Part shown: one piece after another, positions 5,121 to 47,143 of the stretch
Layout of the letters: each line of letters starts with the position of its first letter
Position numbering within the stretch: position 1 is the first letter of the stretch
Notes under the pieces: generated by a model
Database searches by the model: none
Seen by the model: only the letters and a program-made list of their open reading frames with translations
Told to the model about the DNA's origin: nothing
Assembly (NCBI GenBank): GCA_026707045.1
Contig: JAPOXO010000031.1
Location: 15,654-79,653 of the forward strand
DNA: 64,000 nt
Direction: 5' to 3'
DNA from: Gammaproteobacteria bacterium
Lineage (GTDB): Bacteria > Pseudomonadota > Gammaproteobacteria > Pseudomonadales > Azotimanducaceae
Made by a program: the position numbers and the translations under genes

Positions 5121-5372
5121 GTCGCGTCCGATGTAAGTTAAAAATCGAACAATTCGTCCATAGAGTTTCTTGAAGAGAATCTCTCTAGTGCTCTCGGTGG
5201 TGAGACTAGTCGAGGACTCTTCATCTTGGCCGACTCCTGCCTGCCCATACTCTAACTCTTCACATCAAATCCCTCACATTGACGAGTCCGTAAGAGAAGG
5301 TCAAACCAGTCTTTAACACTATATATCTAGTATTTTAAAATCAATTAACATAAAATATTTAATGTGTAAAAG

Positions 5373-5750
5373 TTGAACGCAGGTAGCATGACTAGTCCTA
5401 GTGTCAAACGTGTAGCTGCAAAGCTTGGAGAAGATTTGCGAACCGCACGTCTCAGAAGACGTTGGTCTCAAAAGGATGTTGCAACGAAAGCTGGTGTGTC
5501 AATCGGGACAATTCAACGAACTGAGTCGGGGGATCCAGGAGTTTGTATGGGAACAATAATCATGCTCTTCTATATCTTCGGTTGTCAGAAGCAACTTGAA
5601 GATGCCCTAGATCCTTCAAAAGACGAAACGGGACTAGTCGCGGATTTTCTCCGTCTGCCCCAACGTATTCGTTCCGCACGTCGAACAGATCCCAGGATTT
5701 CTCCTTCCTTGGATCCTAACGATACACAAGAGGATGTGATTGCTTTTTAA
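5373..5750 (+). CDS. hipB: HipB-like XRE-family antitoxin
   Basis: HTH WSQKDVATKAGVSIGTIQRTESG. The stop overlaps the hipA start (TAATG). An ATG at 5388 preceded by AGG may be the real start. Confidence 0.7.
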   Translation: MNAGSMTSPSVKRVAAKLGEDLRTARLRRRWSQKDVATKAGVSIGTIQRTESGDPGVCMGTIIMLFYIFGCQKQLEDALDPSKDETGLVADFLRLPQRIRSARRTDPRISPSLDPNDTQEDVIAF

Positions 5751-7009: not shown

Positions 7010-7104
7010 TTCGTTCTAGATCGTATCTCCAGACTGCAGTCCCAAAGTTTAGTTTTCCCAATATAGTGTGCACAAGGCCCAGTCCTCATATTTCGCAAGA
7101 ACTA

Positions 7105-10100: not shown

Positions 10101-10512
10101 CTGGACGAATGGTGATTCCGACAGGATCAATGCCTACGTTGATTCGAGCAACAATAGTTCTGGTTTCTGCATTGATGACATCTACCGTGTCCGCAGGTGT
10201 ATTTGTCACATAGACCAAATTGGTGTGACTGTTGTAGTCGATTGGATTCGAGTGAGGACTCTCGAAATTCATGTGTCCCACTTGAGCTACGTTTTCGTCT
10301 ATGTCAAATTGTTCAAACTCGAGGGTTGCAAGACCAATGCAACTGACAAGCAACAATGCAGAGCTACCGGCGCATATGAGCATCACATGTGGCCGTAGTA
10401 GTTGTAACACTCGATCAGTGAGTTTACTGTGGCTAGGACGGTGATGAGGAGGCCGAGTAGAACTCTCCTTTTTGTGGAATTGAATGACCAGTTTCTTCAT
10501 GCTCCACAGCAT
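7105..10512 (-). CDS. large secreted/lipoprotein multidomain protein: YVTN beta-propeller + di-haem cytochrome c peroxidase-like + IPT/TIG-like + C-terminal CBM4/9-like
   Basis: YVTN-type repeat (LVYVTNTPADTVDVINAETRTIVARINVG...VWVANHVSDSVSVID). Two CxxCH haem motifs: CASCH at 8933-8947 and CGNCH at 8467-8481. The C-terminus ends in IDDVGLYEG, typical of CBM4/9 sandwich modules. The N-terminal LLLVSC is lipobox-like. The exact start is uncertain. Confidence 0.7.
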   Translation of the reverse strand: MLWSMKKLVIQFHKKESSTRPPHHRPSHSKLTDRVLQLLRPHVMLICAGSSALLLVSCIGLATLEFEQFDIDENVAQVGHMNFESPHSNPIDYNSHTNLVYVTNTPADTVDVINAETRTIVARINVGIDPVGITIRPDGKEVWVANHVSDSVSVIDSNQESPTYHQVLHTIQVFDLDDYHTLFDEPVGIVFAHNDTAYVALSSSNRIAKIDVATRGISDILNVTAQDPRALAVRDDRLYVIPFESNNQTQISGCYPENLDSDPNCTFDALAHVVNAMDGADQSTSGGYVADIVRDDRIPDRDLYVFDTNAPPFRNEPLQIVDTVGTLLYGIAVDSRHRVYVAQAEARNDANGKAGTEGHGLAEMENRAFLNQITKIDCSGTECTDPIFFELEPLPPDDPAEGMALATPFAIQISEDDATLVVTAAASNRVFTMDATSGAVLGRVEVGAIPRGLSLLSNSDGSPSKAWVLNALQNSVSLVDLEDLANPSLVATIQLEDPSDPMLKLGRILFNDASVSSTETFACASCHPDGHTDQLLWVLETPLCSNGCDQIQPRLVQDIRGLRGSAPYHWDGTVGDPFGGVNTASHNVLLDPNCNIENEESCTLHLIDGSLATTMCDQEDCETNDEGKPGKLSGEERAALAKYLLSVPYPPSVERPFTNELSAQALQGIHEFHYEQQCGNCHRLPFWVNTNIGGSGMDIPSWRGANDRWKNAPQNRFFFADLVENDTQGFPERTGFTSDPDLFQMILEGSVGFSGSFARQVTLNSTTSAETTSSNLLEALETSDREEGVVLQGEGILFDDAESEGNDIEFDYRDGAYVVVGEPSNSYSRSQLLDLAEQELLLATFTARLGDGVTYEHPQPGIWDVGLPVVPLFGGGRPAEFPELVENEPLRLRGSHIYPGSNILVNGRRVDGSVRCETGELPNCRDNIVLVQLDELPEANAMHMLQVQNTHGLFSNDLPFFVLESEFQAESENLISSGGTFNGQGDWNVNLSNGMADVSWTGEANFAIHETAPMQTWRVSLTHTVSVDKNKDYSLCYKAKSEASRYVTVNVDTGPETEDLPGYMSLMGTAFVPEVGGAARGSGASTNEQYREFHHRFVPTQTDTTARIAFNLAQSELDVQIDDVGLYEGKGCGTP

Positions 10513-11341
10513 TGAAAGCTCAACATATTACTGCTCTGTAGCAAGCAATGTCCTGTGGAGAGTGCTTTGAAGCTGAAGGGAGCTGGTGTCACTCTTGCTA
10601 TAGCTGGCGCAATATTAGGGATAGTTTGTGGCGTATAGACCGAGGTTGACGACGTGGGTGATTTGCTGTCAGGAAAGCAGATCGCGAAACAAGTATTAGC
10701 AATAGATTTGTGTGCGACGGAGTTCTCGTCGTTATTTGTTGTGATTCTCGCATTTAAAGCCAATAGGAGCAGCGGGGCCAGTGGCAATGTACTAATTATC
10801 CTTTGTTCGGTTGCAGCCACGTTGAGTCTATTGGTGATGCTTTATTAGCGGTAGCTATTCCTATCGACGGGAATGCTGACGTATTCGTCCGAGCGGTCTA
10901 CTTGAGCGGTGAGTTTGTTTTTCTATTTTTTGCTCTTGTGTTGATCGGAGAAGTCCCGATACGACTCAATGCTTCGGAAAGCAACAATTAGGTCTCGCAC
11001 TTCTACTGATTACAAAATCAAAGGATCAAATTGCTTGCGTTACCGAAATTTGAATCGAAGAGCATTTACATTAGATTTGAACTGATGCATGGATTCGTAC
11101 TCGTTACCGAACAATTCATGCCAGTCGAATCAATCTAGAGTGAGATTCGAACGCAGTCTGAAGAAGTCGAGTGGATCCGACGAGGCTTGGCGGGTCAGTC
11201 TGTGCCCAAATCTCCGAACGCCACGCAAGTATTCTCGGCGGAAGCTCGAGCGACAGAGCCGGCTACACGCCAACCGCAACCGATCCTCTCCTTGCAAATT
11301 CCCAAATGAGGTAGAAAATTCTTTTTCACAGGTTGAGGAGC

Positions 11342-11695
11342 TCAGCGGCTCTCTCGTCGGGCATCTACCAAACTAATGAGTCCAGCAACGAACAACAGGG
11401 CAATCCACAGACCAAATAGGATTCCCGTCAACTGCAGCAGTCCCTCGAAAAGCCAATCGTTAGAGTAAGTGTAGGTGTTGTCTACATATGCCAACACAGC
11501 CAATGCGCAAATCCCCAACAATGGACAGACGACCAAGAACCAACCTTGAGTGCTTCTACTTGTCTTATCACTCAGTCTCACGGTGGCAATTGCTGCCATC
11601 GACACGAAGAGTTCGGTAATGCCGCATCCCATCCCAAAATTTATATGCCACCACACTCCCAGCCACAGAGAATATCCCAAAGAAAATGAACACAC
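11342..11695 (-). CDS. small polytopic membrane protein (hypothetical)
   Basis: 117-aa hydrophobic ORF 116 bp downstream of the paralogue array. An overlapping, equally hydrophobic ORF in another frame (11568-11768) makes the 5' end ambiguous. Confidence 0.35.
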   Translation of the reverse strand: MCSFSLGYSLWLGVWWHINFGMGCGITELFVSMAAIATVRLSDKTSRSTQGWFLVVCPLLGICALAVLAYVDNTYTYSNDWLFEGLLQLTGILFGLWIALLFVAGLISLVDARRESR

Positions 11696-11811
11696 CCGCT
11701 CCGATCCGAATGAGCCTAATTTGTCCTTCTCTCATTGAAGGCACGTACAAATAAATCTGTGATTTCACTGATTGATTTACAGGTCAATCACCATCTTGGA
11801 CAAGCTTTAGC

Positions 11812-13662
11812 TTAGCCTTCCTCCAAAGAATTCGCATCTTCGTCTGTGAGAAATTTCTTTGCCGCGTCCACTTGTTTGTGGGTGAAATACTCTTCGAGTT
11901 GATTTTTGGACAGCAATATAGTGGCAATTTGTGACCTGAGCTCTCGAGTAGGAAAACGGTTCATTGAATTGAGCAATGCATCGGGGTCCAATTTTGCCCA
12001 ACGCAGTGCAACTGCAGCATAAGAACTTGCTCGTATAGATGTAGGGGCTTGCTGGATTAAGCGGAACACTTCGTCGACATCGCCATTTTGAATCAGAGCA
12101 TCACTTACCTCAATCAACGCAGCGGTCCGAGTTCCTTGTCTCACCTGAGGAAGCAACTCAAGCGCTTTTTGCAAGTTTAAATTTGCAAGAGTAGCAATGA
12201 CAGAGAGCTCCAATCCTGTTCTTGACACATGATCTCCTTCCTTCACCGGTTGTGCGAGCGCTATTTCCATAGCAATCTCAGGATACCCCGGTGCGAGGTC
12301 TGGCAGGATATGTTGCAGCACGTGACGTTTCAGCTCTTCCATAGCGGGCTCGTTCAAGATCCAATCGAGTGCCGCTTCCTGGTCCTTGCGAATCCAAGTG
12401 AAGGCGACACTAAGTGCAGCTCGAGCTCGTGCATCTCCCGAATCGATGCTACTTACCAAGCGCGCAGCTTCCTTTGGGGAATCTCTTGCAATTCTCCTCA
12501 AAGCTTCTGAAATCGCTGTTGATTGAACGTGTGCCGGAAATACATCGATGTTTGCTACAACTTCCTTTGGCTTGTGATTCGCCCACACATCCGCAACGAC
12601 CGACTCTAGCTCTTTGCGCAAAGACCAATTCTGAACTTCGGACGCTGCTGTCAAAGCAGATTGTGGATCTGAGCTTGCCCAAATGATTGATACACGTTGA
12701 ATGGTCGAATGGTTTGGGTCATCCTTGATAGTTAAGGCATACCTGAATGTGCCGACTGGATCAGACAAGACAACATTTGAGAGTACGCGACGAAGCACGT
12801 GGTGCCTGTCTTGTGAATTGGACAGCGACAGTAGTACCTGATCGAGTACGTTCACGCCATTCTTTTCAGCCCAAGCGAGCGCGACGTCTCCAATGTAGTT
12901 CATGTTCTGAGACTCGATCTGCATATTGGTAACCAACTCGTGCCATGATTCTTCCGGGTTTCCGATCGACTGTTCGATCTTTCGCCTCGCTACAGTCGCA
13001 ATGGTGAACGGTTCGTTACCAAGTTTTCGACCAATTGCTCGGAGAGTGCCATCGGACAGGTCCGTGCGTGCTCGCACTATTGTGTGTAAAGCGGATGTCT
13101 TCCATTCATTGTTGAGTGTTCGAGCATGTGCAACTGCAGCATCCAAATCGGAGTGTGCCCAGTCTCGGAAGATACTCTCTGCGAATTGTCGACGATAGCC
13201 GAGTGCGTCCATGACAAGCACGCGCGACAATGCTCTGTGAGGGTCGATTTGAGCAAGTTTTTGAACGACAGCTCTTTGAAAGTCGTACACACTGAAACTC
13301 GAAGGAATTTCCTGCGAGTGTTTCAGAAGATCAGCTACTTGAACTTCAGTCAAATCGTCCAGGAGAATACGCAGGGCTAAACCTTTCTCGAAGGAACTCT
13401 TGAATTTGTCGAGGTCATCGAGATTTCGTATCGGTGTATTCGGTAAATTGGATGAACTAGGTGCTACACCATTTGCTGTAGATTGAATTGCGACCAGTTC
13501 ATTTGTATTGGTGGGGTCTGATGTGGTGGTCGCATCGGACGAGTGATCTTTGTCTTCCGGGACGAGAGGGAGCCAGTAAACAGCACTAGCGATTCCAATT
13601 CCAAGAATGAAACCAACTGAAAGCAGCGCAATATGGATACCTTGTGATTTTGAGAGCTTCAC
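11812..13662 (-). CDS. membrane-anchored helical-repeat protein, paralogue 1 of 6 (unknown function)
   Basis: 616 aa with a GTG start. It has the N-terminal TM helix (GFILGIGIASAVYWL) and collinear conserved blocks shared with the five ORFs upstream of it. Confidence 0.8.
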   Translation of the reverse strand: MKLSKSQGIHIALLSVGFILGIGIASAVYWLPLVPEDKDHSSDATTTSDPTNTNELVAIQSTANGVAPSSSNLPNTPIRNLDDLDKFKSSFEKGLALRILLDDLTEVQVADLLKHSQEIPSSFSVYDFQRAVVQKLAQIDPHRALSRVLVMDALGYRRQFAESIFRDWAHSDLDAAVAHARTLNNEWKTSALHTIVRARTDLSDGTLRAIGRKLGNEPFTIATVARRKIEQSIGNPEESWHELVTNMQIESQNMNYIGDVALAWAEKNGVNVLDQVLLSLSNSQDRHHVLRRVLSNVVLSDPVGTFRYALTIKDDPNHSTIQRVSIIWASSDPQSALTAASEVQNWSLRKELESVVADVWANHKPKEVVANIDVFPAHVQSTAISEALRRIARDSPKEAARLVSSIDSGDARARAALSVAFTWIRKDQEAALDWILNEPAMEELKRHVLQHILPDLAPGYPEIAMEIALAQPVKEGDHVSRTGLELSVIATLANLNLQKALELLPQVRQGTRTAALIEVSDALIQNGDVDEVFRLIQQAPTSIRASSYAAVALRWAKLDPDALLNSMNRFPTRELRSQIATILLSKNQLEEYFTHKQVDAAKKFLTDEDANSLEEG

Positions 13663-13730
13663 GTATTCAGGTTGCGGAGCAAGATTTCAAGCTTTGATTA
13701 CTTTGTTTAAAGACGATATTCAGTGAAGAA

Positions 13731-15599
13731 TCACCACCCTTCAATAGTGCGAACTCCACCTTTCTCAAACGATTTCGTATCTTCATCTGAGAGAAATTTC
13801 TTGGCCATTGCGACTTGCTCGTCGGTCAAGCTTTTTTGAAACTGATTGATGGTCAAAAGCTCCATTGCCGCTTTCGACCTAACATCCTCTGAAGGAAATC
13901 GATTCATTGAATTGAGCATTTCTTCAGGATCGGATCCTGCCCAAGATGAGGCCAGATCCATATAGGGTTTCTGTCTCTCCGATTCAGGAAGTCCTTCGAC
14001 CATGGCGAACGCATCGTCGATTTTGCCAATTCGGATCAACGCTCCGTTTATCGTCTGTAACGCTAGCTGTTTGGTAAAACCTGCACGAACCTGAGGAAAC
14101 AGCTCAATCGCCTTGTTCAAGTCCTGACGAGAGAGATTTGAAATTACGATATATTCCATTCCAATTGGCCCTCTCTTATCACTGATGGGCTGTGCAACCG
14201 CAGTGTCCATGGCGAGTTCCGGGTCTGCCTCCACAAGACTATCCAAGACAGTCTCCAGTAGAACCGGTCTAAACTCCTGGATGGCGGGCTCGTTAAGAAC
14301 CCAGTCAAGGGCTCCTTTTGGGTCTCGATACGACCAACTGCTGACCACACCCGATGCTGCTTCCGCTTTTGCAGCACCAGCTTCCATCTTTACTACCAAA
14401 GATGCGGCTTCCTTCGGATAGTCTCCGGCAATTTCCGAGAGAACCGAGGACAGTGCTGTTGATCGAACAAGGTCAGGCAATCCATCGATGCTGATCATCA
14501 GTTCCCTCGGTTTCTCTCTAGCCCAGGTTCTAACAATCGTTTCCTGCAATTCTCTGCGCAAGGGTCCATGTTGAACTTCAGTAACCGCCGATAGGGCAGA
14601 TTGGGGATCAGAGCTTGCCCAGACTCTTGTGACACTTCCAATAGTCGCGTTGGAATGGTCGTTCTCAATAGTCATCGCATAGCTGAATGCGCCGGCAGGA
14701 TCATAGTAGGCAGCATCATTTAGAACTGTGAGAACTACTGTCTTGCGAGCCTGCGAATTGGTTAGCGAATCGGCGATTTGATCCATTACGCCCAATCCGC
14801 TTTTCTCAACCCAGGCAGATGCCACTCGCGCAAGGCTCCAAATGTGTCGTGAGTCGTCCTGCATATCGATGACCAGCTCGTTCCACAAAGTTTCTGGATT
14901 CTCTTTTGCCTCCTCTATCCTTCTCTCGGCTATAAACGTCACGGCAACTTGCTCGTCTCCAAGCTCTTGAGCTATTGATCTGAGAGTGTCTGCAGAAAGA
15001 TCCTTCCTTTCGTCGATGATTGTCCGCAAGACGGATTCCCTTAGTCTTTCCTGAAGCGTTCGTGCATGTGCGACGGCTTCGTCCAAGTCGGTATGTGACC
15101 ATTCTCGAAATATTTGAACTACAAGCTGGAGTGGCACGGAATCCTTGCTCATTTCAAGAACTTGTGACAACGCTTGGGTTGGGCTTAATTGGGTAAATCT
15201 CTGAATTACAGCCCGCTGAACGTGGTACTTTCTGTTGGTCGAGGGTAGGTCCTGAGATTGCTGCAGAAGTTCAGCTACTTGCACTTCATTTGAATCGGCG
15301 AGGAGAATCCGTAGAGCTAATTCTTGGTCGAAGAAGCTGTTGAGTCTGTTAAGCTCGTCGAGATTGCGTACCGCAACAATGGGCAGCCAAGATGAAATAG
15401 GGGCTACATCGCCTGCTGTCCCCTCAATTCCGACTGGTGTACTTGCATCCCCGGAGATTTCACTGGTCGCATCTGCCTTGGGATCGCTGTTTCCCTGACG
15501 CATAGGGAGCAAGTAAATGGCACTAGCTATCCCAATGCCAAGAATGAAACCGATTGAAAGAAACGAGATTAACTGAAGTTTCGATCTGGAATGTTTCAT
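13731..15599 (-). CDS. membrane-anchored helical-repeat protein, paralogue 2 of 6
   Basis: The track ORF starts at a TTG at 15626. The ATG at 15599 gives MKHSRSKLQLISFLSIGFILGIGIASAIYLL, which matches the N-termini of the other copies. Confidence 0.8.
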   Translation of the reverse strand: MKHSRSKLQLISFLSIGFILGIGIASAIYLLPMRQGNSDPKADATSEISGDASTPVGIEGTAGDVAPISSWLPIVAVRNLDELNRLNSFFDQELALRILLADSNEVQVAELLQQSQDLPSTNRKYHVQRAVIQRFTQLSPTQALSQVLEMSKDSVPLQLVVQIFREWSHTDLDEAVAHARTLQERLRESVLRTIIDERKDLSADTLRSIAQELGDEQVAVTFIAERRIEEAKENPETLWNELVIDMQDDSRHIWSLARVASAWVEKSGLGVMDQIADSLTNSQARKTVVLTVLNDAAYYDPAGAFSYAMTIENDHSNATIGSVTRVWASSDPQSALSAVTEVQHGPLRRELQETIVRTWAREKPRELMISIDGLPDLVRSTALSSVLSEIAGDYPKEAASLVVKMEAGAAKAEAASGVVSSWSYRDPKGALDWVLNEPAIQEFRPVLLETVLDSLVEADPELAMDTAVAQPISDKRGPIGMEYIVISNLSRQDLNKAIELFPQVRAGFTKQLALQTINGALIRIGKIDDAFAMVEGLPESERQKPYMDLASSWAGSDPEEMLNSMNRFPSEDVRSKAAMELLTINQFQKSLTDEQVAMAKKFLSDEDTKSFEKGGVRTIEGW

Positions 15600-15681
15600 G
15601 AATTCAGAAAATTGCAGCCGGTACAACTGAGCTCAATCGCGCTTCTTGTCCCAAATCCAAACACTTTTCAAGAAGCGATCA

Positions 15682-17535
15682 CTAGTGTTGACTAACTACA
15701 GCTTCTTCTTCCTCATGCGTCTTGAGGTCCTCTTCCGTGAGAAATTTCTTTGCTTCTTCGATTTGTTCGTCCGTTAAGTTTTTTTGGTGAAGATTGTGGG
15801 ACAAAATCGCCATGGCCGCTTTCGATCGTACTTCTCGTGATGGCAGACGGTTCATCGAATTGAGAAGACCAGTCGGGTCAGAATAGGCCCAAGACGAAGC
15901 CACAGCGGAGTAGACCCCAAGTCTATCAGGTTCATCAACCTGCTGTACCAAGTCTAGAGCTTCGTCGACCTCCTCGTTTCGAATTAAATATTGGCTTACC
16001 CTTTGGACCGCTTGAACAGTTGTCGGGCCTTTACGCACTTGAGGGAGCAGCTCAATGGCTTTGTCCAAGTTTGAATAGGTTAGCGAGGCTATAACTTGTA
16101 GCTCCATCCCCACTCCATTCGCTTCTTCGTCTATAGGTTGTGACAGTGCTGTATCCATGGCAAGTTGGGGGTCTGCCTGTACAACTCGATGCAAAATGTC
16201 TTGCAGCAAGTCAGTTCTTATTTCATCGACACTTGGGTCATTCAAAACCCAGTCTAGTGCTGCGTTATGGTCACCATACGACCAATTGCGCGCAACGCTG
16301 GTCGCGACCTGCTTCTTGGCTTCACTGTCTTCTATTCCTGCAACTAGCTGAACAGCTTCTTGGGGCGAATCTTGAACGATTGTTGATAAAGCTTCTGCTA
16401 ACGCCGTTGCCTTAACATGCTCGGGCAGTCCGTCGATGCCATCCAGTACCTCGCGTGGTTTGTAATACGCCCAAGTCCTAATGATGGAGTCCTCTAACGT
16501 GCTTCGCAACGATTTTTTCTCAATGTCGGAAGCGGCAGCGAAGGCCGAATGCGGATCTGATCGAGCCCAAGAGTCAGCAACGCCTCTAATAGTCGAGTTG
16601 TATTGGTCGTTCTCAAGAGTCAAGGCATACCTGAACGCCCCCTCTGGATTAGTATTGGCAGCATCAGTCAGGACACTGCGAACCACGAATTGACGAGTTG
16701 CCAAATTGGTCAGCGAATTGGAGATCTGATCTAAAACGCTCAATCCGCTTTGCTCAACCCAAGCGGATGCCACTCGTGCAATGCTCCACAGGTGTTGTGA
16801 GTTGCTCTGTAAATCGATCGCCAGCTCGTTCCAGGCTTTTTCTGGATCTGCAATCGCCTCTTCAATCTTTTGCTCTGCAATGGCCACAATAGCTAACTGT
16901 TCGTGGCCGAGTTCCCGAGCGATTGACCGCAATACATCCTCTGAGAGATCAGTTCTTTCCCGCACTATTGAACGTACTGCGGGTTCCTTCAAGTGTTCTT
17001 CCAATGTACGTGCTTGTGCTACGGCCTCGTCAAGATTGGAATTTGCCCACTCTCGAAAGATGCTTGCTACAAACGAGTAAGGCCAATATGGGTCCGTACT
17101 CATCTCAAGCACTTGCGTCAGTGCCAGTTGGGGGTTGATGTTGGCTAGTCTCTGAACGATGGCTGATTGTGTGTCGATTGTGCCGTACGGGGAAAGTTTT
17201 TGTGTTTGCTTTAGTAGTTCGGCTACTCGGGATTCATCCGAGTCGGCCAGAAGGCTACGCAACGCCAAATCTCTATGGAACGAGCTCTTTATTTCTTCGA
17301 GATCGTCTAGATTGCGAACTGTCTCCAGCGACGGATCGACGGTGACAGAAATTCTTTTGGATGCGTTTAGCTCTTGAGGCATCGGTTTGCCAGTATCCGC
17401 AAGGATGGGCGTGTCAGCTTCAGACACTTGAGGTGCAACGATGAGCCAATACACTCCGCTCGAAGTTCCAATTCCAAGGATGAACCCAATGGCGATCAGC
17501 CCCACAATAATGGTTTTCGAGTTTGCGCGATTCAT
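15682..17535 (-). CDS. membrane-anchored helical-repeat protein, paralogue 3 of 6
   Basis: 617 aa with the same architecture and conserved blocks. Confidence 0.8.
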   Translation of the reverse strand: MNRANSKTIIVGLIAIGFILGIGTSSGVYWLIVAPQVSEADTPILADTGKPMPQELNASKRISVTVDPSLETVRNLDDLEEIKSSFHRDLALRSLLADSDESRVAELLKQTQKLSPYGTIDTQSAIVQRLANINPQLALTQVLEMSTDPYWPYSFVASIFREWANSNLDEAVAQARTLEEHLKEPAVRSIVRERTDLSEDVLRSIARELGHEQLAIVAIAEQKIEEAIADPEKAWNELAIDLQSNSQHLWSIARVASAWVEQSGLSVLDQISNSLTNLATRQFVVRSVLTDAANTNPEGAFRYALTLENDQYNSTIRGVADSWARSDPHSAFAAASDIEKKSLRSTLEDSIIRTWAYYKPREVLDGIDGLPEHVKATALAEALSTIVQDSPQEAVQLVAGIEDSEAKKQVATSVARNWSYGDHNAALDWVLNDPSVDEIRTDLLQDILHRVVQADPQLAMDTALSQPIDEEANGVGMELQVIASLTYSNLDKAIELLPQVRKGPTTVQAVQRVSQYLIRNEEVDEALDLVQQVDEPDRLGVYSAVASSWAYSDPTGLLNSMNRLPSREVRSKAAMAILSHNLHQKNLTDEQIEEAKKFLTEEDLKTHEEEEAVVSQH

Positions 17536-17615
17536 GGATTCGACCTACTTCTGCCCGACAGTACAGCGGGAGCAAGCTTCAATTGTTGCAATGCATAGAG
17601 CCAAGCGAGTGGCCA

Positions 17616-19505
17616 TCACCACCCTTGCAACAATTCGAACATACCGGCTGGACCTTTCTCAAGGGTCTTGGCATCTTCTTCTGTGAGAAACGTCTTAGCC
17701 TCTTCGATTTGCTCGTCGGTCAGATTTTTCTGAAATTGGTTGTAGGACACAATCACCAATGCCGCTCTCGACTTGATCTCGTCCGAGGGAAAACGGTCCA
17801 TCGAATTGAGCACTCCTTCTGGATCGGACCCCGCCCAAGCCGCGGCCACTCCCATGTACACCTGGTTCCTTTCGGATTCGGGAGCTTGTCGAGCCATATT
17901 GAATGCTTCATCAATCTCGCCATTTTGGATCAAAGCTCCGCTTATCATCGCGAATGCTTGCATTTTCGTAGGACCTTCGCGAACCTGAGGAAGTAGCTCA
18001 ATGGCCTTGTCCAAGTCCGAATAGGCAAGCGAAGCGATTACATTCAACTCCATCCCCATTCCCAAGAACATCCCGACAGCACCCTCTTCGATGGGTTGCG
18101 AGAGTGCCGTGTCCATTGCAAGCTGAGGATCAATCTGAACGAGGCTATACATAATTGAACTCAGCATCTGCTGCCTATCTTGTTCGATAGCGGGCTCGTC
18201 GAGAATCCAAGCTAGTGCCGCCTCATGATCTTGAGTCGCCCAGGTGTTAGCAACGCTGATGGCTGCCATAGTCTTAGCCGAACTATTTTCCATTGCTGAT
18301 ATGAGAGTGGCAGCTTCCTTAGGAGAATTTCTAGCGATCTTGGCTACAGCCGCCGCGGTCGCCGGCTCTTGAGCATTTTTTGGTAGTGAGTCGATTACTT
18401 TCAAGACTTCCCGTGGCTTGTCTCGTGCCCAAGACTCTACAACTTGCTCCACCAACTCTCTTCTTAAGGACTTCTTCTCAACTTCAGCTGCTGCCACCAA
18501 AGCTGACTGCGGGTCCGATCGTGCCCAAGTGCTCGCCACGGATCTAAGTATCGAATTGTGAATATCACGGTCAATTGTCAACGCATACTTGAATGCGCCT
18601 TCGGGATCGCTGTTCACGACGTCGAAAAGGATGTTGCGAATCACATTCTGTCGAACTTGCCCATTGGTTAGGGTCTGGGCTATCTGATCTAGGACAGGCA
18701 ATCCACTTTTCTCGACCCAAGCCGAGGCGATTCGTGAAATGTCCTGCATATGCCGCTGATCGTTTTGCAATTCAAGAGCTATTTCATGCCATGCTTTTTC
18801 CGGGTCTCCAATTGCCTTTTGTATCTTTCGCTGGACTATGACCGAACTTGCAATCTGTTCATCGCCTAGTTCTCGAGCGATTGACAAGAGAACATCATCG
18901 GAGAGATCCATTCGCCGATGCACGATTGCTTGCACAGCAGCTCCTTTCCAGTCGTCTCTCATCGTCGCTGCATGTGCAACGGCCTCATCTAGATTGGACT
19001 GTGACCACTCCCGAAAGATGTTCGGCACATATCGAACGGGATAGGACTGGGAGTCTAACTTCCGTAGTTGTGATAAGGCTCGTTTGGGGTTGAGGTGCGC
19101 AAGTCGTTGAACAATAGCCATTTGCACGTCGGACCTGTCAGCCATCAAGGGGGTTGCCTCTGATTGCTCTAAGAGTGCAGCAGTCTCCGATTCATCCGAA
19201 TTAGACAGGAGAAGCCTTAGTGCCAGTCCTTGCTCGAATGCGTTGCTGATGTCGTTGAGTTCATCGAGACGGCTGATGGATGCCAGCGGTGATACGGGGG
19301 CACTCGTGTCTTCATCGGACGTACTTTGCGATTCCGTGATCGGTTGAAGAGGTTCAGATGGGATTGGCGGGATGGTATTCGCTAGGTGTTCGGTGTTTTC
19401 AGGCGCTATCACTAGCCAATAAACGACACTAGAAAGTCCGATACCAAGAACAATGCCTGTAGAAATGAGCCAAAAAATCGTGCTTGGCGATTGTGAAAAC
19501 TTCAT
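17616..19505 (-). CDS. membrane-anchored helical-repeat protein, paralogue 4 of 6
   Basis: 629 aa with the same architecture and conserved blocks. Confidence 0.8.
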   Translation of the reverse strand: MKFSQSPSTIFWLISTGIVLGIGLSSVVYWLVIAPENTEHLANTIPPIPSEPLQPITESQSTSDEDTSAPVSPLASISRLDELNDISNAFEQGLALRLLLSNSDESETAALLEQSEATPLMADRSDVQMAIVQRLAHLNPKRALSQLRKLDSQSYPVRYVPNIFREWSQSNLDEAVAHAATMRDDWKGAAVQAIVHRRMDLSDDVLLSIARELGDEQIASSVIVQRKIQKAIGDPEKAWHEIALELQNDQRHMQDISRIASAWVEKSGLPVLDQIAQTLTNGQVRQNVIRNILFDVVNSDPEGAFKYALTIDRDIHNSILRSVASTWARSDPQSALVAAAEVEKKSLRRELVEQVVESWARDKPREVLKVIDSLPKNAQEPATAAAVAKIARNSPKEAATLISAMENSSAKTMAAISVANTWATQDHEAALAWILDEPAIEQDRQQMLSSIMYSLVQIDPQLAMDTALSQPIEEGAVGMFLGMGMELNVIASLAYSDLDKAIELLPQVREGPTKMQAFAMISGALIQNGEIDEAFNMARQAPESERNQVYMGVAAAWAGSDPEGVLNSMDRFPSDEIKSRAALVIVSYNQFQKNLTDEQIEEAKTFLTEEDAKTLEKGPAGMFELLQGW

Positions 19506-19534
19506 ACTTTCAATCCGTGCAGGTTACAGTTAGG

Positions 19535-19563
19535 CTAATACGAGCTCCAGCTCTTGATTGCAA
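19535..19563 (-). promoter_or_regulatory. putative sigma70-like promoter upstream of paralogue 4 (TTGCAA-N17-TATTAG)
   Basis: Read on the minus strand. The -10 lies about 29 nt upstream of the ATG at 19505. Confidence 0.25.
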
Positions 19564-19581
19564 GACGAGAAACAGCAACCA

Positions 19582-21480
19582 TCAAAAACCCCGGAACAAT
19601 TCAATCATGCCTTCTTGGCCTTTTTCAAGTGCTTCCGCATCTTCTTCGAGGAGGAATTTCTTGGCTTTTTCGACTTGCTCGTCGGTCAGATTTTTTTGGA
19701 AGCGATTCATAGACACAAGCATCGCGGCAGCTTTCGACTTAACTTCCTTGGAAGGAAAACGGTCCATCGAATTGAGCATTCCTTCAGGGTCGTGTGCTGT
19801 CCAAGCACCGGCAATGGCGGTGTATAAACCTGCTCTTTCAGACTCGGAAAATTGCTGAACCATATTGAGCGCTGCGTCCACATCTCCATTTCGTATCATC
19901 GCTCCGCTTACCATGGAGAATGCTTGCACTTTGGTGGGACCCTCACGAACCTGTGGAAGTAGCTCAATCGCCTTGTCCAGATCCGAAAAGGCCAACGAAG
20001 TTATGACATTCAGCTCCATTCCTACTTCTCCCATTCCCGGCCACATACCACCCTCGCCCTTCTCGATGGGTTGCGAAAGAGCCGTATCCATGGCTAGTTG
20101 TGGGTCAATCTGCACAAGTCGAAACATTACTGATCTGAGCATCTGTGCTCTTAACGCTTCGATAGCGGGTTCGTTCAGAATCCAATCAAGCGCCGCTTCG
20201 TGATCTTGATATGTCCAAGTGCTGGCAACAAGGCTTGCGGCCGAGAGTTTTGCAGGGCCATTGTCCATTCCTGCTACTAAAACTGCCGCTTCTTTTGGAG
20301 AATTGTTAGCTATTCTCCCTATGGCCGATGCGACCGCATTCTCCTGGGCGTGTTCGGGCAAGACATTAATGCCTTCCAATACTTTGCGTGGTTCTTTTTG
20401 CGCCCAAGACTCTGCTGCTTCTTTCTCTAATTCCCGGCGCAAGGAACTTTTCTCAACTTCAGACGCTGCCACAAGAGCAGACCGCGGGTCCAATCTTGCC
20501 CAAGTGCTCATCATGCTCTTAATAGTCGAATTGTATGGGTCGCTTTCAAGAGTCAGTGCATACCGAAACGCGCCCTCGGGGTCGTGGCGGACAACTTCGT
20601 AGAGAACGTTTCGAACCACGGTCTGCCGAAGTTCGGCATTGGTTAGGGACTGGGAGATTTGATCCAAGACGCTCAACCCATCCTGCTCAACCCACGCAGA
20701 AGCGACCCGCGAGATACTCCACCTTTGCTGGGGGTCGTTTTGCATGTCGACAACCAATTCGTTCCACGCCTTTTCCGGGTTTCCGATTGCATCTTCTATT
20801 TTTTGTTGCGTTATGGCCGCAACCGCAATCTGTTCATGACCGAGGTCTCGCGCAATTGAAAGGAGAACTTCCTCCGAGAGGTCTGTTCGTTCCTGGACGA
20901 TTGCACGCAATGCAGACTCCTTCCAGTCGTTGCTCATTGTCCGCGCGTGGGCAATGGCTTCGTCCAGATTGGAACGCGACCACTCATGGAATATGCTCGG
21001 TATGTACCGGCCAGGATAGGACTGGGAGCCTAATTCTCTTAGATGAGCTACTGCCCGTTTGGGGTTGAACTGAGCAAGCCGTTGCACAATAGCTGTTTGC
21101 AGGCTCAATCTGAACGAGTTCGAGGGCATGTTTTCCGATTGAGCCAAAAATTCAGCTGTTTGGGCCTCACTTGAATCGGCTAAGAGAATTCGAAGCGCTA
21201 AACCTTGCTCAAATGCGCTCTCAATTCTCTTAAGATCGTCAAGGTTCCGTACGTCAGAAATGGACGATTGAATGGAACTGGCTACTTCGTTGGTGTCGGC
21301 TACTTCATGTGCGGGAGGCTCTTCAGCGTGAGGCAGAATTGGTGCGTCAGCACTTGCAATTTGGATTTGATTGTCAGGTAATACGATGAGCCAATAGACA
21401 GCACTCGAGGCACCGACTCCAAGGAGAAAAACTATTGCGATCAACGAAAAGAAAACAGCGGGCGTTTGGGGAAGGTTCAT
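19582..21480 (-). CDS. membrane-anchored helical-repeat protein, paralogue 5 of 6
   Basis: 632 aa with the same architecture and conserved blocks. Confidence 0.8.
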   Translation of the reverse strand: MNLPQTPAVFFSLIAIVFLLGVGASSAVYWLIVLPDNQIQIASADAPILPHAEEPPAHEVADTNEVASSIQSSISDVRNLDDLKRIESAFEQGLALRILLADSSEAQTAEFLAQSENMPSNSFRLSLQTAIVQRLAQFNPKRAVAHLRELGSQSYPGRYIPSIFHEWSRSNLDEAIAHARTMSNDWKESALRAIVQERTDLSEEVLLSIARDLGHEQIAVAAITQQKIEDAIGNPEKAWNELVVDMQNDPQQRWSISRVASAWVEQDGLSVLDQISQSLTNAELRQTVVRNVLYEVVRHDPEGAFRYALTLESDPYNSTIKSMMSTWARLDPRSALVAASEVEKSSLRRELEKEAAESWAQKEPRKVLEGINVLPEHAQENAVASAIGRIANNSPKEAAVLVAGMDNGPAKLSAASLVASTWTYQDHEAALDWILNEPAIEALRAQMLRSVMFRLVQIDPQLAMDTALSQPIEKGEGGMWPGMGEVGMELNVITSLAFSDLDKAIELLPQVREGPTKVQAFSMVSGAMIRNGDVDAALNMVQQFSESERAGLYTAIAGAWTAHDPEGMLNSMDRFPSKEVKSKAAAMLVSMNRFQKNLTDEQVEKAKKFLLEEDAEALEKGQEGMIELFRGF

Positions 21481-21509
21481 AAACTCAGGAAACTCGTTGA
21501 GTCATTCGA

Positions 21510-21538
21510 ATGTTATGGTTTTGAGAGTCTACGGTCAA
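21510..21538 (-). promoter_or_regulatory. putative sigma70-like promoter upstream of paralogue 5 (TTGACC-N17-TAACAT)
   Basis: Read on the minus strand, inside the 350-bp gap. The -10 lies about 29 nt upstream of the ATG at 21480. Confidence 0.3.
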
Positions 21539-21830
21539 CCACTAAACCTCGAGCATGCGTTGTAGAATTTACATGTGCGTTCGAAGCGACACGAGAGCCT
21601 CAAACAAATGCACAAGTGTTCTTTTGCACGTAGTAGTTTTCTCTATTGCAAGCTCTAATAAGTTACTGAAAAATAATGAATCTTAGTAGCGCAAACCACC
21701 GCACATGGATTGGTGCGGGACGGCTCGTAGCCCTGAATCTTAAACGGTAGCCTTACGATGATGGGCGACCTATTTCAGTAGTACTTGGTTTGTGGGGTGG
21801 TATTGTGTACCGTGATTTTCGGTTTGCAGT

Positions 21831-23738
21831 TCAATTTCCGCCTTGGAAGAATTCGAGCATGTTTGCCTCTCTTTTCTCAAGCGATTTAGCATCTTCGTCG
21901 GTGAGGAATTTCTTGGCTTGTTCGATTTGTTCGTCGGACAATCCGCTATCGAACTGGTTGAATTGGCTGAAAGACACAAGCACCAAGGCCGCTTGAGACT
22001 TGATCTCCTTTGATGGAAGACGATCCATCGAACCAAGTAACCCTTCAGGATCGTTTGCCGCCCATGATGTTGTCACTATCCCATACAGGTTGGTCCTTTC
22101 AGATTCCGGTGCTTTCTGGACTATATCCAGCGCTTTGTCGACTTCGCCATTTTGGATTAAAGCTCCACTGACTACAGAGTAAGCCTGTGTTTTTGTAATT
22201 CCTTCACGAACTTTAGGAAGCATTTCAATCGCCCTGTCCATATCCGCGTATGCAAGGGAAGAAATCACATTGAATTCCAGCCCGATGCCCATGCCTCTCC
22301 ACTGTCCGCCCTCGCCTTTGGCGATGGGTTGCGAAAGAGCTGTATCCATTGCAAGTTGCGGGTCTACCTCCACCAGCGTGTGCATAATTGGACCGAGAAT
22401 CTGCGACCTAATATCTTCGACACCGGGCTCGTTCAAAATCCAGTCAAGTGCTGCCTTATGGTCTTGATTTGCCCAGTTGCGCACTACGTTAGTTGCGGCA
22501 TTTGTCTTAGCCGAGCCATTTTCCAATCGGGCAACCAATAGGGCGGCTTCTTTCGGAGATTCTGCAGCAATCGTGCCTAGGGCGGATATGATCGCACTTT
22601 CCCGAGCATGTTCGGGCAACGCGCCGATACCCTTCAAAACTTCACGTGGTTCGTTGTGCGCCCAAGTCTGGGCAACTTGCTTCTCAAGCGCTCTGCGGAT
22701 GGAGTTCTCTTCAACTTCAGATGCAGCGGCAAAAGCAGATTGCGGATCAGTGCGTGCCCAATTCCTTATCACGCCGGTAATGATTGAATTGTGAGTGTCG
22801 TTTTGGATTGTCAACGCATATTGAAGGGCACCTCGGGGATTGGTATAGGCAACATCGAAAAGGATCTGTCGTATTACGTGTTGCCGAGTTTCCAGATTGG
22901 TTAGTGATTGGGAGATTTGGTCCAACACACTCAATCCGCTTTTCTCAACCCATGCAGATGCGACTTGCAAGATGTTGTATCGATGTTGAGGATCGTTTTG
23001 CAGGTCGGCTATCAGTTCGTTCCACGCTATCCCCGGATTTTCGATTGCATCATCGAATTTTCTCTGTGTTATGGCCTCGTCTACAACTTGCTCATTGCCC
23101 AGGTCACGAGCAATTGAACGGAGAACCTGTTCTGAAAGATCTTTTCGTTCTTCTAGGATTGCTCTTAAAGCAGTATCCTTCCAATCTATGCTCGACGTTT
23201 GTGCATAAGCCACAGCTTCGTCGAGGTTGGATCGTGACCAATCCTGGAAAATGATCGATACGAATTGTCCAGGGTGGGATTGTGATCCCAGTTCACGTAG
23301 TTCGGAAAATGCTCGTTTGGGATTGAGTTGAGCAAGTCTTTTAACGATTGTCCTTTGTATGTCGTTTCGAACTATGTACGAGGAAATTTCCTGAGATTGC
23401 GAAAGCAGCCTTGCCGCCTGCGATTCATTTGAATCGGCTAGAAAGATCCAAAGAGCAAGTCCTCGCTCAAAAGCGCTGTCAATATTTGCAAGATCGTGAA
23501 GGCTGCTTATTGCGGCCACCGGAGATTGTCTCGAACCCGATACGTCAGCGGGTTCACTGTGCTCTCGAGCGAGCTGCTCGCTAGTTGATTGCGGTACCGG
23601 TGCGATGACCTCCACACCTTGATCGCTGCTATTCGGAACCATGATCAGCCAATACACGACACTGGTTACGCCGATGCCAAGGACGAAACCGGTTGCGAGC
23701 ATCAAGTGAAGGGTGCGTTGCGTTATGGATGATTTCAT
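21831..23738 (-). CDS. membrane-anchored helical-repeat protein, paralogue 6 of 6
   Basis: 635 aa with the same architecture and conserved blocks. It is first in transcription order. Confidence 0.8.
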   Translation of the reverse strand: MKSSITQRTLHLMLATGFVLGIGVTSVVYWLIMVPNSSDQGVEVIAPVPQSTSEQLAREHSEPADVSGSRQSPVAAISSLHDLANIDSAFERGLALWIFLADSNESQAARLLSQSQEISSYIVRNDIQRTIVKRLAQLNPKRAFSELRELGSQSHPGQFVSIIFQDWSRSNLDEAVAYAQTSSIDWKDTALRAILEERKDLSEQVLRSIARDLGNEQVVDEAITQRKFDDAIENPGIAWNELIADLQNDPQHRYNILQVASAWVEKSGLSVLDQISQSLTNLETRQHVIRQILFDVAYTNPRGALQYALTIQNDTHNSIITGVIRNWARTDPQSAFAAASEVEENSIRRALEKQVAQTWAHNEPREVLKGIGALPEHARESAIISALGTIAAESPKEAALLVARLENGSAKTNAATNVVRNWANQDHKAALDWILNEPGVEDIRSQILGPIMHTLVEVDPQLAMDTALSQPIAKGEGGQWRGMGIGLEFNVISSLAYADMDRAIEMLPKVREGITKTQAYSVVSGALIQNGEVDKALDIVQKAPESERTNLYGIVTTSWAANDPEGLLGSMDRLPSKEIKSQAALVLVSFSQFNQFDSGLSDEQIEQAKKFLTDEDAKSLEKREANMLEFFQGGN

Positions 23739-23766
23739 AATGTAGCGCTAGAGGTGGATTGCCTGC

Positions 23767-23795
23767 ATATTATTTCTTTGAGATTTCATGGTCAA
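23767..23795 (-). promoter_or_regulatory. putative sigma70-like promoter upstream of paralogue 6 (TTGACC-N17-TAATAT)
   Basis: Read on the minus strand. The -10 lies about 28 nt upstream of the ATG at 23738, and the -35 hexamer is the same as in the paralogue 5 candidate. Confidence 0.35.
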
Positions 23796-24364
23796 TTGAT
23801 CCGCAATGCTGAACTGACAGACATGATGCGCTCTTCACAAGTACTCAGATCGCATCTCGAGTGTCGGAACAGCTCCCGCTGATCGGTACTCTGGAATCCT
23901 TTATTTGTTCTTTACGGCATCTGTGGATTGGGCTGGCTTCAAGCACCTTATGGAGCAACTCTCCTTCAGTCAAACGTAAGCAATACACTTTGGCAAGTCG
24001 AATTGGGCAACTGAATTGTTTGAAACGATGAAGAACCCAAAGCGGGTGACTACATCGAGAAATCCGATAAATGGCCAATGAATTCAGCAAAATCCGACCT
24101 ATCTAGCTTGGCTGAGGACTTTGAAAGGGCAAGCCCTGTTTCACTCACAACGGCAGGAACACTGTCATTCTGCGCGAGATGGAGGTGTTCATTTCCCTAG
24201 TGTTCTTCAGTGTCGCCGTTGAAGCTCTGGCCCCGGGTCTCAGCGAGACTACAACTTGTACTTTTCCGCAGAAAGAAAAGAAGCCACCCGGACAAGAGGA
24301 GGCTAGAACAGCATACCGAAGATTTTGAGGGGCAATGGATTGCGAGATCAGTGATCTGTTTTGA

Positions 24365-25117
24365 TCAAGTGACCTCCTTGTACCTTAAGCGCAACATCGC
24401 AAGCAGCACAAGAATAAGAGCGACATCAAACGCGTAAAGGGTTAGCAAACTCAAGTCGCCCCAACTATAGATTGAAGATGTCCCTAGGAAGTCCATCCAG
24501 GCGTTAAAAGGCCCATAACTAGGAAGGACGTACGACACGTAGTAGAAGGGGCCATCCCTAACAAATAGTTCGAACACCCAACTGAGATCGCTGAAAAAGG
24601 TTAAGACACCCGCCACTGCAGGATGCATTACTGTAGACAGTGCCAAGGCCAAGGAACACATCATGAGGAATTGGCAGAAAGTGAGCCACGGGGCGAAGCG
24701 CATTACTGGGAGCATGTCGAGATCGTGCACAAAGCAATAGAACACCATTACACCTCCCATGATCAGAGAATATCCAAGCATCACAATGAGTGCACCGACC
24801 AACTTTCCGAGCAGGAACTGCCAGCGAACTACTGGGCGACAGAGGAGCATGGCGATGGTTCCTCGGGAAATCTCACCGGAAATTGCGCTCGCTCCGACAT
24901 AGATGGCCGCAATAGTTCCAATGAAAGAACTGAACGCATAGAAGATTGCTAATGCAATGAACAACTGAGGTCTAATCTGCGGGTCATCGACAAACTGCTC
25001 AATAATGAAGTAAAAGAGCAACGTGATAATGAACATGCTGATCAGAAAAGCGAGCAGAAAACGGCGATGCATCAGCGTTCGCAAGTAATCTCCCGTTATG
25101 AAGAGCAATGAATTCAT
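24365..25117 (-). CDS. ABC-2 type transporter permease
   Basis: 250 aa with about 6 predicted TM helices. Its start overlaps the stop of the upstream ABC ATPase by 4 nt. Confidence 0.75.
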   Translation of the reverse strand: MNSLLFITGDYLRTLMHRRFLLAFLISMFIITLLFYFIIEQFVDDPQIRPQLFIALAIFYAFSSFIGTIAAIYVGASAISGEISRGTIAMLLCRPVVRWQFLLGKLVGALIVMLGYSLIMGGVMVFYCFVHDLDMLPVMRFAPWLTFCQFLMMCSLALALSTVMHPAVAGVLTFFSDLSWVFELFVRDGPFYYVSYVLPSYGPFNAWMDFLGTSSIYSWGDLSLLTLYAFDVALILVLLAMLRLRYKEVT

Positions 25118-47077: not shown

Positions 47078-47143
47078 GTTTCCTGCCGCTGTGGAACATG
47101 TTTCGGTGAGAGTTTTTAGCAATTTGTGAGAGGAGTTGGGTTC

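Follow-up and report, generated by a model that had tools for sequence, protein, structure and literature searches.

Six old tandem paralogues in a gammaproteobacterial genome encode putatively membrane-tethered solenoids built from a 32-residue repeat

What do six large and similar genes do, standing side by side on one strand over about 12 kb of a gammaproteobacterial genome? The question is raised by positions 11812-23738 of a 64,000-nucleotide stretch of contig JAPOXO010000031.1 (the window, by which we mean that whole stretch), which are filled by six intact minus-strand genes encoding proteins of 616-635 amino acids (aa). Our answer, to which we give as a whole a probability of roughly 0.6, is that these genes encode a diversified repertoire of membrane-tethered periplasmic binding scaffolds. 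We are highly confident of the architecture and the evolution of the family, and would give about even odds to the binding-scaffold function, which is inferred. The genes, each recognised as an open reading frame (ORF), are the following.

11812..13662, minus strand: paralogue 1, 616 aa, GTG start, last transcribed; family hidden Markov model (HMM) match E=4e-243
13731..15599, minus strand: paralogue 2, 622 aa from the ATG at 15599; family HMM match E=2e-256
15682..17535, minus strand: paralogue 3, 617 aa; ORF, alignment and family HMM
17616..19505, minus strand: paralogue 4, 629 aa; ORF; the copy used for the AlphaFold2 model
19582..21480, minus strand: paralogue 5, 632 aa; ORF, alignment and family HMM
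21831..23738, minus strand: paralogue 6, 635 aa, first transcribed; ORF, alignment and family HMM

The ORF listing agrees with the original prediction, made from the sequence of this stretch, on the number, strand, sizes and spacing of these genes. From paralogue 1 to paralogue 6 the spacers measure 68, 82, 80, 76 and 350 bp; the second would shrink to 55 bp if paralogue 2 began at an alternative in-frame TTG at 15626 (giving 631 aa), and the alignment with the other copies favours the ATG. Paralogue 4 is identical to the NCBI entry MCY3883756.1, [quoted passage not shown], from the metagenome-assembled genome (MAG) of an uncultured organism.

Are the six genes recent duplicates? Neighbouring proteins are 46.8, 49.8, 51.3, 59.6 and 57.2% identical (43.6-59.6% over all pairs), which is close to the "about half" that had been estimated by eye, and paralogue 1 is the most divergent, with 44-47% identity to the other five; the alignment and these identities make the six diverged paralogues of one family, as had been proposed. 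At the DNA level the copies are 56-67% identical, with a unit that recurs every ~1,940-1,975 nt (2,258 nt across the long gap). The best stretches between copies are only 60-82% identical and windowed identity reveals no near-identical tracts, so that the array is the product neither of chance nor of a recent duplication or a mis-assembly; the same windows contain none of the mosaic blocks or long high-identity tracts that would indicate recent gene conversion. In pairwise comparisons by the Nei-Gojobori method, nonsynonymous divergence (dN) among the six copies is 0.29-0.47 and synonymous divergence (dS) ranges from 1.5 to more than 3, that is, saturated, with dN/dS of 0.10-0.29, and each of the six genes keeps an open frame throughout its 1.85-1.9 kb. 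Since the synonymous sites are saturated and dN/dS stays this low, we consider the duplicates to be old and maintained and not an assembly artefact, in agreement with the idea of an old, maintained expansion. Close pairs of orthologues or recent paralogues in other genomes, for which dS is not saturated (0.2-0.8), give a similar dN/dS of 0.13-0.33, with the N-terminal tail and the linker as the least constrained part. A site-wise test of selection had been suggested; with the copies too saturated for site models, dN/dS was taken pairwise and in windows, and it stays below 1 save in isolated terminal windows, giving no sign of positive selection. The six genes are maintained protein-coding genes under moderate purifying selection.

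What do the proteins look like? Each begins with a tail of 8-12 residues, of which 0-3 are basic, followed by an uncharged stretch of 23-25 residues with the core G(F/I/V)(I/V)LG(I/V)G..S.VYWL, which contains a GxxxGxG / small-residue motif. The claim that all copies share a transmembrane (TM) core holds; the exact motif given for it is only approximate, copy 5 reading VFLLGVGASSAVYWL and copy 2 ending in AIYLL. A hydrophobic 19-mer is found at the N-terminus of 135 of 148 family representatives (longest uncharged run, median 23 residues), which makes the signal-anchor layout a hallmark of the family. The linker that follows is non-conserved, as had been said; it measures 38-43 aa in the six copies, at the low end of the 40-70 aa proposed, with a net charge of -3 to -8 and 26-45% Pro, Ser or Thr. 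In copy 4 the parts lie as follows.

19404..19478, minus strand: single predicted membrane helix (signal anchor) of copy 4, residues ~10-34, with the GxxxGxG motif IFWLISTGIVLGIGLSSVVYWLVIA
19275..19400, minus strand: linker of copy 4, residues ~36-77, non-conserved, acidic, Pro/Ser/Thr-rich and predicted to be disordered
17619..19274, minus strand: predicted alpha-solenoid of copy 4, residues ~78-629, ~17 helix-turn-helix hairpins of a ~32-residue repeat

The AlphaFold2 model of copy 4 has an overall predicted local distance difference test (pLDDT) of 82.4 and a predicted template modelling (pTM) score of 0.62; most 10-residue blocks exceed 90, and residues 20-72 are left unordered (pLDDT <50). 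Over residues ~73-628 DSSP assigns 36 helices to the model, arranged in ~17 consecutive hairpins, which supports the earlier view of the remainder (~550 aa) as all-helical. Internal repeats are significant when the family profile is compared with itself by hhalign (285-575 against 92-377, E=4e-15; 204-461 against 270-563, E=5e-12). With the hairpins aligned where their second helix begins, a unit of ~32 residues emerges, with the pooled consensus ..R..A...V...WA..DP..AL..aL.LP, in which W-A ends the long helix, a D-P turn opens the short one (..A-L..a-L) and L-P often closes the unit. This regular repeat had gone unremarked in the original prediction, as had the large size of the family, its concentration in sponge and coral Pseudomonadales and its link to sigma-factor fusions of Verrucomicrobiota, to which we come below. 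The solenoid domains (~550 residues) are acidic (pI 4.6-5.7, net charge -12 to -39), and there is no Cys in any of the six proteins. Most invariant positions are the W, P and A of the repeat; the charged residues R198, D426, E486 and R509 are also invariant, and all the conserved blocks quoted from the sequence alone are present in the six-way alignment, among other strongly conserved, family-specific blocks such as AWVE.SGL.VLDQI and LLPQVREGPTK.

Does any described family claim these proteins? Pfam and NCBIfam scans of the six copies gave no match above threshold and no enzyme family, PADLOC gave none above threshold for copies 1 and 4, and sequence searches of the PDB with the family profile, a distant relative and the repeat consensus returned only weak summed PPR matches or noise. 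The earlier statement that there is no catalytic motif and no assignable family therefore stands, and no characterised family lays claim to the proteins; domain scans likewise found no catalytic, cytoplasmic signalling or anti-sigma domain. The recurring weak signals (TPR_19, TPR-S, ELYS) all fall on one hairpin pair at residues ~490-550. For TPR proteins the best scores are 17.4 bits with TPR_19 (cut-off 25) and 16.2 with TPR-S (cut-off 27.6), each in one copy and at one site. Pfam has no PPR match, and the match of the family profile to designed PPR proteins in the PDB (E~2e-8) is discarded: a single query segment (aa 489-544) pairs with each target repeat in turn for only 4-7 bits, and these small scores add up. 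When six real repeats and a synthetic consensus were run against Pfam, nothing but sub-threshold noise came back (PI3Ka, ELYS, Katanin_con80). No Sel1 match (PF08238) appears at E<=10 in the six copies, nor an SLT (PF01464) or SLT_L match of the kind expected from Slt70-type lytic transglycosylases; searches of Pfam, NCBIfam and the PDB failed to bear out the label "SLT domain-containing" that NCBI/JGI give to one distant relative (P0231). A membrane-bound anti-sigma factor is not indicated either, with a tail of ~8-12 residues, no anti-sigma Pfam match and no sigma-like ORF nearby. There is no Pfam HEAT or Arm match. Foldseek, run with the model against the PDB, finds eukaryotic HEAT/ARM/PPR solenoids only (SF3B1, CAND1, importin-beta, PP2A-A, PPR10) at E=5e-5 to 1e-3, with template modelling (TM) scores of 0.14-0.37, root-mean-square deviations of 14-30 A and ~11% identity, so that what is shared with HEAT/ARM proteins is the fold class; all of the best 50 matches are scaffolds, and Slt70 is not among them. 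The fold check that had been recommended on one copy thus ends in generic solenoids, and the model makes the predicted fold class an alpha-solenoid and nothing more specific. The family to which the six copies do belong is their own: they match its full-length profile at E=1e-243 to 1e-285, with the anchor and ~17 repeats present. As far as these searches go, the 32-residue WA..DP..AL repeat class is described by no curated library, being absent from Pfam and NCBIfam.

The comparison with known solenoids is nevertheless instructive. Like TPR, PPR, HEAT, ARM and Sel1-like proteins, those of the window are predicted to stack helix-turn-helix hairpins into an elongated superhelix with no catalytic site, and one of their hairpin pairs (aa 489-544) weakly resembles the PPR/TPR consensus. 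Their period of 32 differs from that of TPR (34), PPR (35), Sel1 (36-44) and HEAT (~40), their signature is WA..DP..AL and, unlike the known solenoid classes, they are reached by no Pfam repeat model at threshold. Several periplasmic chaperones, adaptors and regulators built of helical repeats (YfgM, CcmI/CycH, NlpI, ExoR) offer a second comparison, and a number of them are anchored by a single N-terminal TM helix. They act on other proteins by binding them, and have a periplasmic helical-repeat domain, as the window proteins would if their location is as we think. No sequence relation between the two groups was detected, and these proteins are single-copy with conserved partners, whereas the window family is multi-copy and has no conserved neighbour.

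How widespread is the family? A profile search run exhaustively over 1.84 billion cluster representatives (50% identity) matched 12,934 proteins at E<=1e-3, of which 6,012 have E<=1e-10 and 1,421 have E<=1e-30; the best 150 matches, from which the 148 representatives scored for the N-terminal 19-mer were taken, are mostly full-length, in proteins of ~570-700 aa. A scan of GTDB species representatives with two exact peptide patterns, which under-samples divergent members and does not reliably cover free-living relatives, found 33 loci in 14 genomes, all of them Pseudomonadales, 'Ca. Azotimanducaceae' or unclassified gammaproteobacterial MAGs. A sponge or coral metagenome is the source suggested by many of the isolate names (SB06xx bins, COS2_bin_1, CO36404bin_7, Plut_88873). 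The SB06xx bins derive from the sponge Ircinia ramosa (PMC11706023), and Azotimanducaceae is the same group as HTCC2089 (PMC12625764).

Tandem arrays recur in these genomes, and homologues elsewhere are again multi-copy and not single-copy housekeeping genes. Among the loci of relatives that were fetched (given L-numbers here, with copies counted by hmmsearch of all locus ORFs) there are arrays of six copies (L008, L012, L032), seven (L010) and five (L015), four copies with fragments in L007, and seven genes on both strands, one of them frameshifted, in L003; the chromosome OZ241909.1 (3.67 Mb) carries at least 17 copies at four loci, some of them frameshifted, which amount to ~0.9% of the genome. 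Split or frameshifted copies lie at the edges of arrays (L003 7927-9828, L004 8796-10684, L007 9469-10634, L027 12185-14023), which is consistent with gene death alongside duplication. In a neighbour-joining tree the arrays of L005, L006 and L012 show one-to-one orthology and others (L008) lineage-specific bursts, a mixture that indicates birth-and-death evolution; window copies 4-6 form one clade, copies 1-2 are basal, and copy 3 is sister to copies from L003, L004, L005, L006 and L012. At L003, 15190-21880 on the minus strand, four divergent members (~600-617 aa) have signal-peptide-like N-termini instead of the GxxxGxG anchor and sit back-to-back with two canonical copies, so that sub-families with different N-terminal targeting share this locus.

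Does the repeat occur outside this lineage? The weakest matches of the first search, P0069-P0072, have a very regular repeat, WA..DP..A..WL..LP, with an exact period of 31-33 residues, and a search from P0069 led to P0229, a protein of 1005 aa with an extracytoplasmic-function (ECF) sigma-70 domain (TIGR02937, 4e-22), one hydrophobic segment and ~650 residues of repeats. The window family profile aligns to the repeat region of P0229 with an hhalign probability of 99.3% (E=2e-20, 409 columns), and to P0270 with 98.5%. Searching with the P0229 repeat region retrieved 243 proteins, verrucomicrobial (Opitutales, Chthoniobacter) wherever the organism is named. They come in two architectures: fusions of sigma-70 (r2+r4), TM and repeats, 580-1005 aa long, 15 of which are among the best 120 of the 243 matches, and stand-alone proteins, many of ~620-650 aa, without any Pfam domain. 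The stand-alone proteins that were inspected have, as in the window, a tail of a few residues, one TM, a linker and repeats; forms with this layout are ~630-650 aa long and can be in tandem, as at L036. There (5001-10909, Opitutales) two tandem stand-alone 640-aa copies lie directly upstream of a 615-aa gene for an ECF-sigma/TM/repeat fusion, a trio that is possibly a three-gene signalling module.

Where an ECF sigma factor has a fused C-terminal extension, this is generally a regulatory module that takes the place of an anti-sigma factor (10.1101/2019.12.11.873521). In the verrucomicrobial fusions a single TM separates the repeat domain from a sigma domain that has to be in the cytoplasm, so that the repeats must be extracytoplasmic there, and homology to these proteins supports, for the proteins of the window, both a place in the periplasm and a role in binding ligands or partners. 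The relation is one of repeat units: orthology from end to end with the ~640-aa proteins of Verrucomicrobiota was rejected, the hhalign alignment being offset by several repeats, and the matches follow the repeat lattice and are not collinear from end to end. Unlike the fusions, the window proteins, which come from another phylum, lack a sigma domain and have no sigma gene in their vicinity; tblastn found no sigma-70-like gene in the window or at any Azotimanducaceae locus. Both groups are known from sequence only.

We can now say what kind of proteins these would be. Each would be a single-pass inner-membrane protein with its N-terminus in the cytoplasm and the remainder outside, held in the membrane by its 8-12-residue cytoplasmic tail and its helix rich in glycine and small residues. 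The flexible, acidic linker of ~40 residues would keep the ~550-residue solenoid off the membrane, in the periplasm, where the long repeat surface would be presented to protein, peptide or glycan ligands. The likeliest mechanism, we infer, is that each paralogue would be a membrane-tethered binding scaffold or receptor module whose specificity differs from that of the others, in a family that has grown by tandem birth-and-death duplication in the 'Ca. Azotimanducaceae' (HTCC2089) Pseudomonadales, mostly in MAGs from sponges and corals. A binding scaffold is favoured because HEAT/ARM/PPR solenoids are protein- or RNA-binding scaffolds and no enzyme or defence match was obtained. The periplasmic location of the bulk, which the original prediction derived from a positive-inside N-terminus, is backed by several independent hints, namely the family-wide N-terminal anchor, the Cys-free acidic domains and the repeat that follows the TM in the ECF-sigma relatives.

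Several observations weigh against this reading. The positive-inside signal is weak, and the tail of copy 5 has no basic residue. The small residues after the GIG motif make N-terminal cleavage possible. With TM-scores as low as those obtained by Foldseek, only the fold class is supported. The dN/dS values carry no signal of diversifying selection in these saturated paralogues, and the strongly conserved blocks could mean a common partner instead of diversified ligands. Finally, there is no consistent neighbour from which a pathway could be named: tblastn of 20 window neighbours against the related loci, and all-against-all clustering of locus ORFs, returned only generic ABC ATPases, a multi-copy AAA_14+DUF4143 ATPase and orthologous synteny blocks, so that of the two things for which homologous loci were to be compared the tandem arrays recur and the same neighbours do not.

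The first alternative that has to be weighed is that the N-terminal segment is a cleaved signal peptide and that the proteins are soluble in the periplasm, or released, as "eukaryotic-like" solenoids acting on an animal host, in the way proposed for the ankyrin and TPR proteins of sponge symbionts. The concentration of the family in sponge- and coral-derived MAGs, the small residues (ASA, SSG, SSA) after the GIG motif, the signal-peptide-like N-termini of the divergent L003 paralogues and the eukaryotic solenoids found as the closest structural matches would all fit such a role. However, the uncharged stretch of 23-25 residues does not stop at the candidate cleavage site but reaches into the conserved VYWL(I/V)xxP, and conservation is higher in the membrane segment than in the linker, with G21 unchanged in all 46 family members compared; no secretion system was found near the array in the window, and relatives of the same layout occur in MAGs of Verrucomicrobiota (Opitutales, Chthoniobacter) that carry no host label. 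We consider this alternative improbable.

A second possibility is that the proteins are accessory sensors or co-receptors, in which a glycine-zipper helix docks on a kinase, a protease or a transporter and the solenoid gates this partner in response to a periplasmic signal, on the model of ExoR acting on ExoS or of the repeats in the sigma fusions. The conserved GxxxGxG / small-residue motif of the membrane helix speaks for it, as does the fusion of the same repeat to ECF sigma, with stand-alone copies directly upstream of such a fusion at L036. We doubt it nonetheless: neither the window nor the Azotimanducaceae loci have a sigma-70-like gene by tblastn, no membrane partner recurs beside the arrays, the cytoplasmic tail is too short for signalling of its own, and at least 17 co-receptors without a matching set of partners are hard to picture.

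Could the proteins instead be structural tethers or adaptors of the envelope, linking the inner membrane to peptidoglycan or to the outer membrane, with TolA, TonB, LpoA and NlpI as the scaffolds to compare? A TM anchor followed by a flexible Pro/Ser/Thr-rich linker and a long rigid domain does resemble periplasm-spanning proteins as they are generally known, but this would leave unexplained why a genome should have at least 17 diverged copies and why some copies are pseudogenised; no peptidoglycan-binding or outer-membrane-interaction domain was found, and the "SLT domain-containing" label on one distant relative, which would fit such a role, was not reproduced. This explanation is in our opinion unlikely.

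It is very unlikely that the proteins are all-alpha enzymes, for example polysaccharide lyases or hydrolases or lytic transglycosylases acting on host matrix glycans. Sulfatase and TauD genes do lie near one related array (L001), and a few charged residues (R198, D426, E486, R509) are invariant, but no catalytic family was found in Pfam, NCBIfam or the PDB, invariant residues are mostly the W, P and A of the repeat, and the model is an open hairpin solenoid and not an (alpha/alpha)n toroid, with scaffolds as all of its best 50 Foldseek matches. As for non-functional relics or an assembly artefact, to which the existence of frameshifted relatives and the lack of an obvious Shine-Dalgarno sequence in the short spacers might lend some colour, the six intact frames under constraint, the absence of near-identical DNA tracts and the record of the same proteins in an independent NCBI MAG assembly effectively refute this reading.

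How might the array be transcribed? Its promoter-like features, which are matches to a consensus only, are these.

21481..21830, minus strand: 350-bp gap between copies 6 and 5, with a promoter-like site
21510..21538, minus strand: sigma-70-like consensus match TTGACC-17-TAACAT, 30 bp upstream of copy 5
23767..23795, minus strand: sigma-70-like consensus match TTGACC-17-TAATAT, 29 bp upstream of copy 6

Since promoter-like hexamers lie upstream of both copy 6 and copy 5, copy 6 may have a transcript of its own and copies 5-1 may form one operon; such consensus matches are rarer in the whole region than in its shuffles. An obvious AGGAGG-like Shine-Dalgarno sequence is missing from the 15 nt that precede each of the six start codons (13663-23830, minus strand). 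Six-frame translations of the 350-bp gap and of both array flanks, searched with hmmsearch, contain no degraded family gene, and Rfam has no match in 10400-24500.

Around the array, the same strand carries upstream a thioredoxin-like gene, an ABC ATPase and an ABC-2 permease, which are not conserved at other arrays. Downstream, 116 bp from copy 1 and again on the same strand, is a 117-aa multi-TM ORF (11342-11695, minus strand) with no Pfam match, a weak PADLOC match to PDC-M18B (E=0.003) and no counterpart beside other arrays. About 1.3 kb downstream of the array, at 7105-10512 on the same minus strand, lies a gene for an unusual 1,135-aa fusion of a YncE-like beta-propeller (aa 90-159 matched) and a di-haem cytochrome c peroxidase/MauG (aa 503-575), which is likewise not conserved at other arrays.

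On a larger scale the array belongs to a stretch of ~28.5 kb (~3.2-31.7 kb) that runs from an algH/yqgE-like DUF179 gene (2618-3190) to tonB (31718-32536); gshB (32724-33701) lies beyond tonB, and yggT, proC and yggS are at 104-2258. As gshB adjoins yqgE/algH in E. coli and P. aeruginosa, the stretch looks like a variable insertion between housekeeping genes; its GC content (0.47-0.50) is no different from that of the rest of the window. At its edge a gene for a helix-turn-helix (HTH) protein with an M78 (ImmA/IrrE-like) peptidase (3455-4534, minus strand) lies beside one for a HipA-like kinase (5750-7009, plus strand), which looks like a toxin-antitoxin or regulatory module. Elsewhere in the window there is a second pair of tandem paralogues, encoding ~400-aa PDZ + M48 metallopeptidases (42696-43901 and 44052-45251, minus strand), as well as a 1,797-aa protein with reprolysin-like (M12B) metalloprotease motifs (47126-52519, plus strand) and a 715-aa protein of Big_9 and cadherin-like repeats (54722-56869, minus strand). 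Large proteins of the adhesin or protease type are often reported in host-associated bacteria.

Other arrays have companions of their own. A protein of 1,418-1,437 aa is encoded 108-515 bp downstream of the array in L005 (12045-16298), L006 (12405-16691) and L012 (11992-16302), has a homologue in L015 and no Pfam or PADLOC match, and has no counterpart in the window; for these few arrays it is a possible local partner. Between the oppositely oriented sub-arrays of L003 (13962-15083) is a gene for a 374-aa protein with a lipoprotein-like N-terminus and no Pfam match, to which ORFs in L004 and L035 are related. The AAA_14 + DUF4143 ATPase gene lies within 10 kb of family genes in 11 loci (at 54 bp in L007, 8258-9415) and is probably a multi-copy element rather than a partner.

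What is new in all this? Alpha-solenoid proteins and expansions of repeat proteins in symbionts are already familiar kinds, the latter a general phenomenon in the literature on sponge symbionts, whose "eukaryotic-like" families (ankyrin, TPR, LRR, Sel1) are likewise multiplied repeat proteins of host-associated bacteria. The window-type family, which takes up ~1% of a reduced-size genome, differs from these surveyed classes in having no Pfam definition and in being, as we see it, membrane-tethered rather than obviously secreted. What is new is the repeat class, its fixed N-anchored layout, how far it has expanded in this lineage and its connection with sigma-factor fusions of another phylum.

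Surveys of symbionts count repeat classes defined by Pfam (ankyrin, TPR, LRR) and miss this family, which is labelled "hypothetical" everywhere and has no Pfam model, although it makes up ~1% of a 3.7-Mb genome and more than 1,400 diverged clusters in public data. A profile of the 32-residue repeat would annotate thousands of proteins and would tie the family to the sigma-factor fusions, which offer an experimental route to a ligand. Should the paralogues indeed bind different ligands in the periplasm, the arrays would be a record of what uncultured associates of sponges and corals sense or capture. It is a bolder and rather unlikely proposal that the 32-residue solenoid defines an unrecognised, phylum-spanning class of membrane-tethered extracytoplasmic receptors, feeding a fused ECF sigma factor in Verrucomicrobiota and forming in Azotimanducaceae a symbiosis family with a repertoire of at least 17 receptors for ligands of the host or the community. 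Were it true, a major symbiosis gene family would so far have been invisible for want of a Pfam model.

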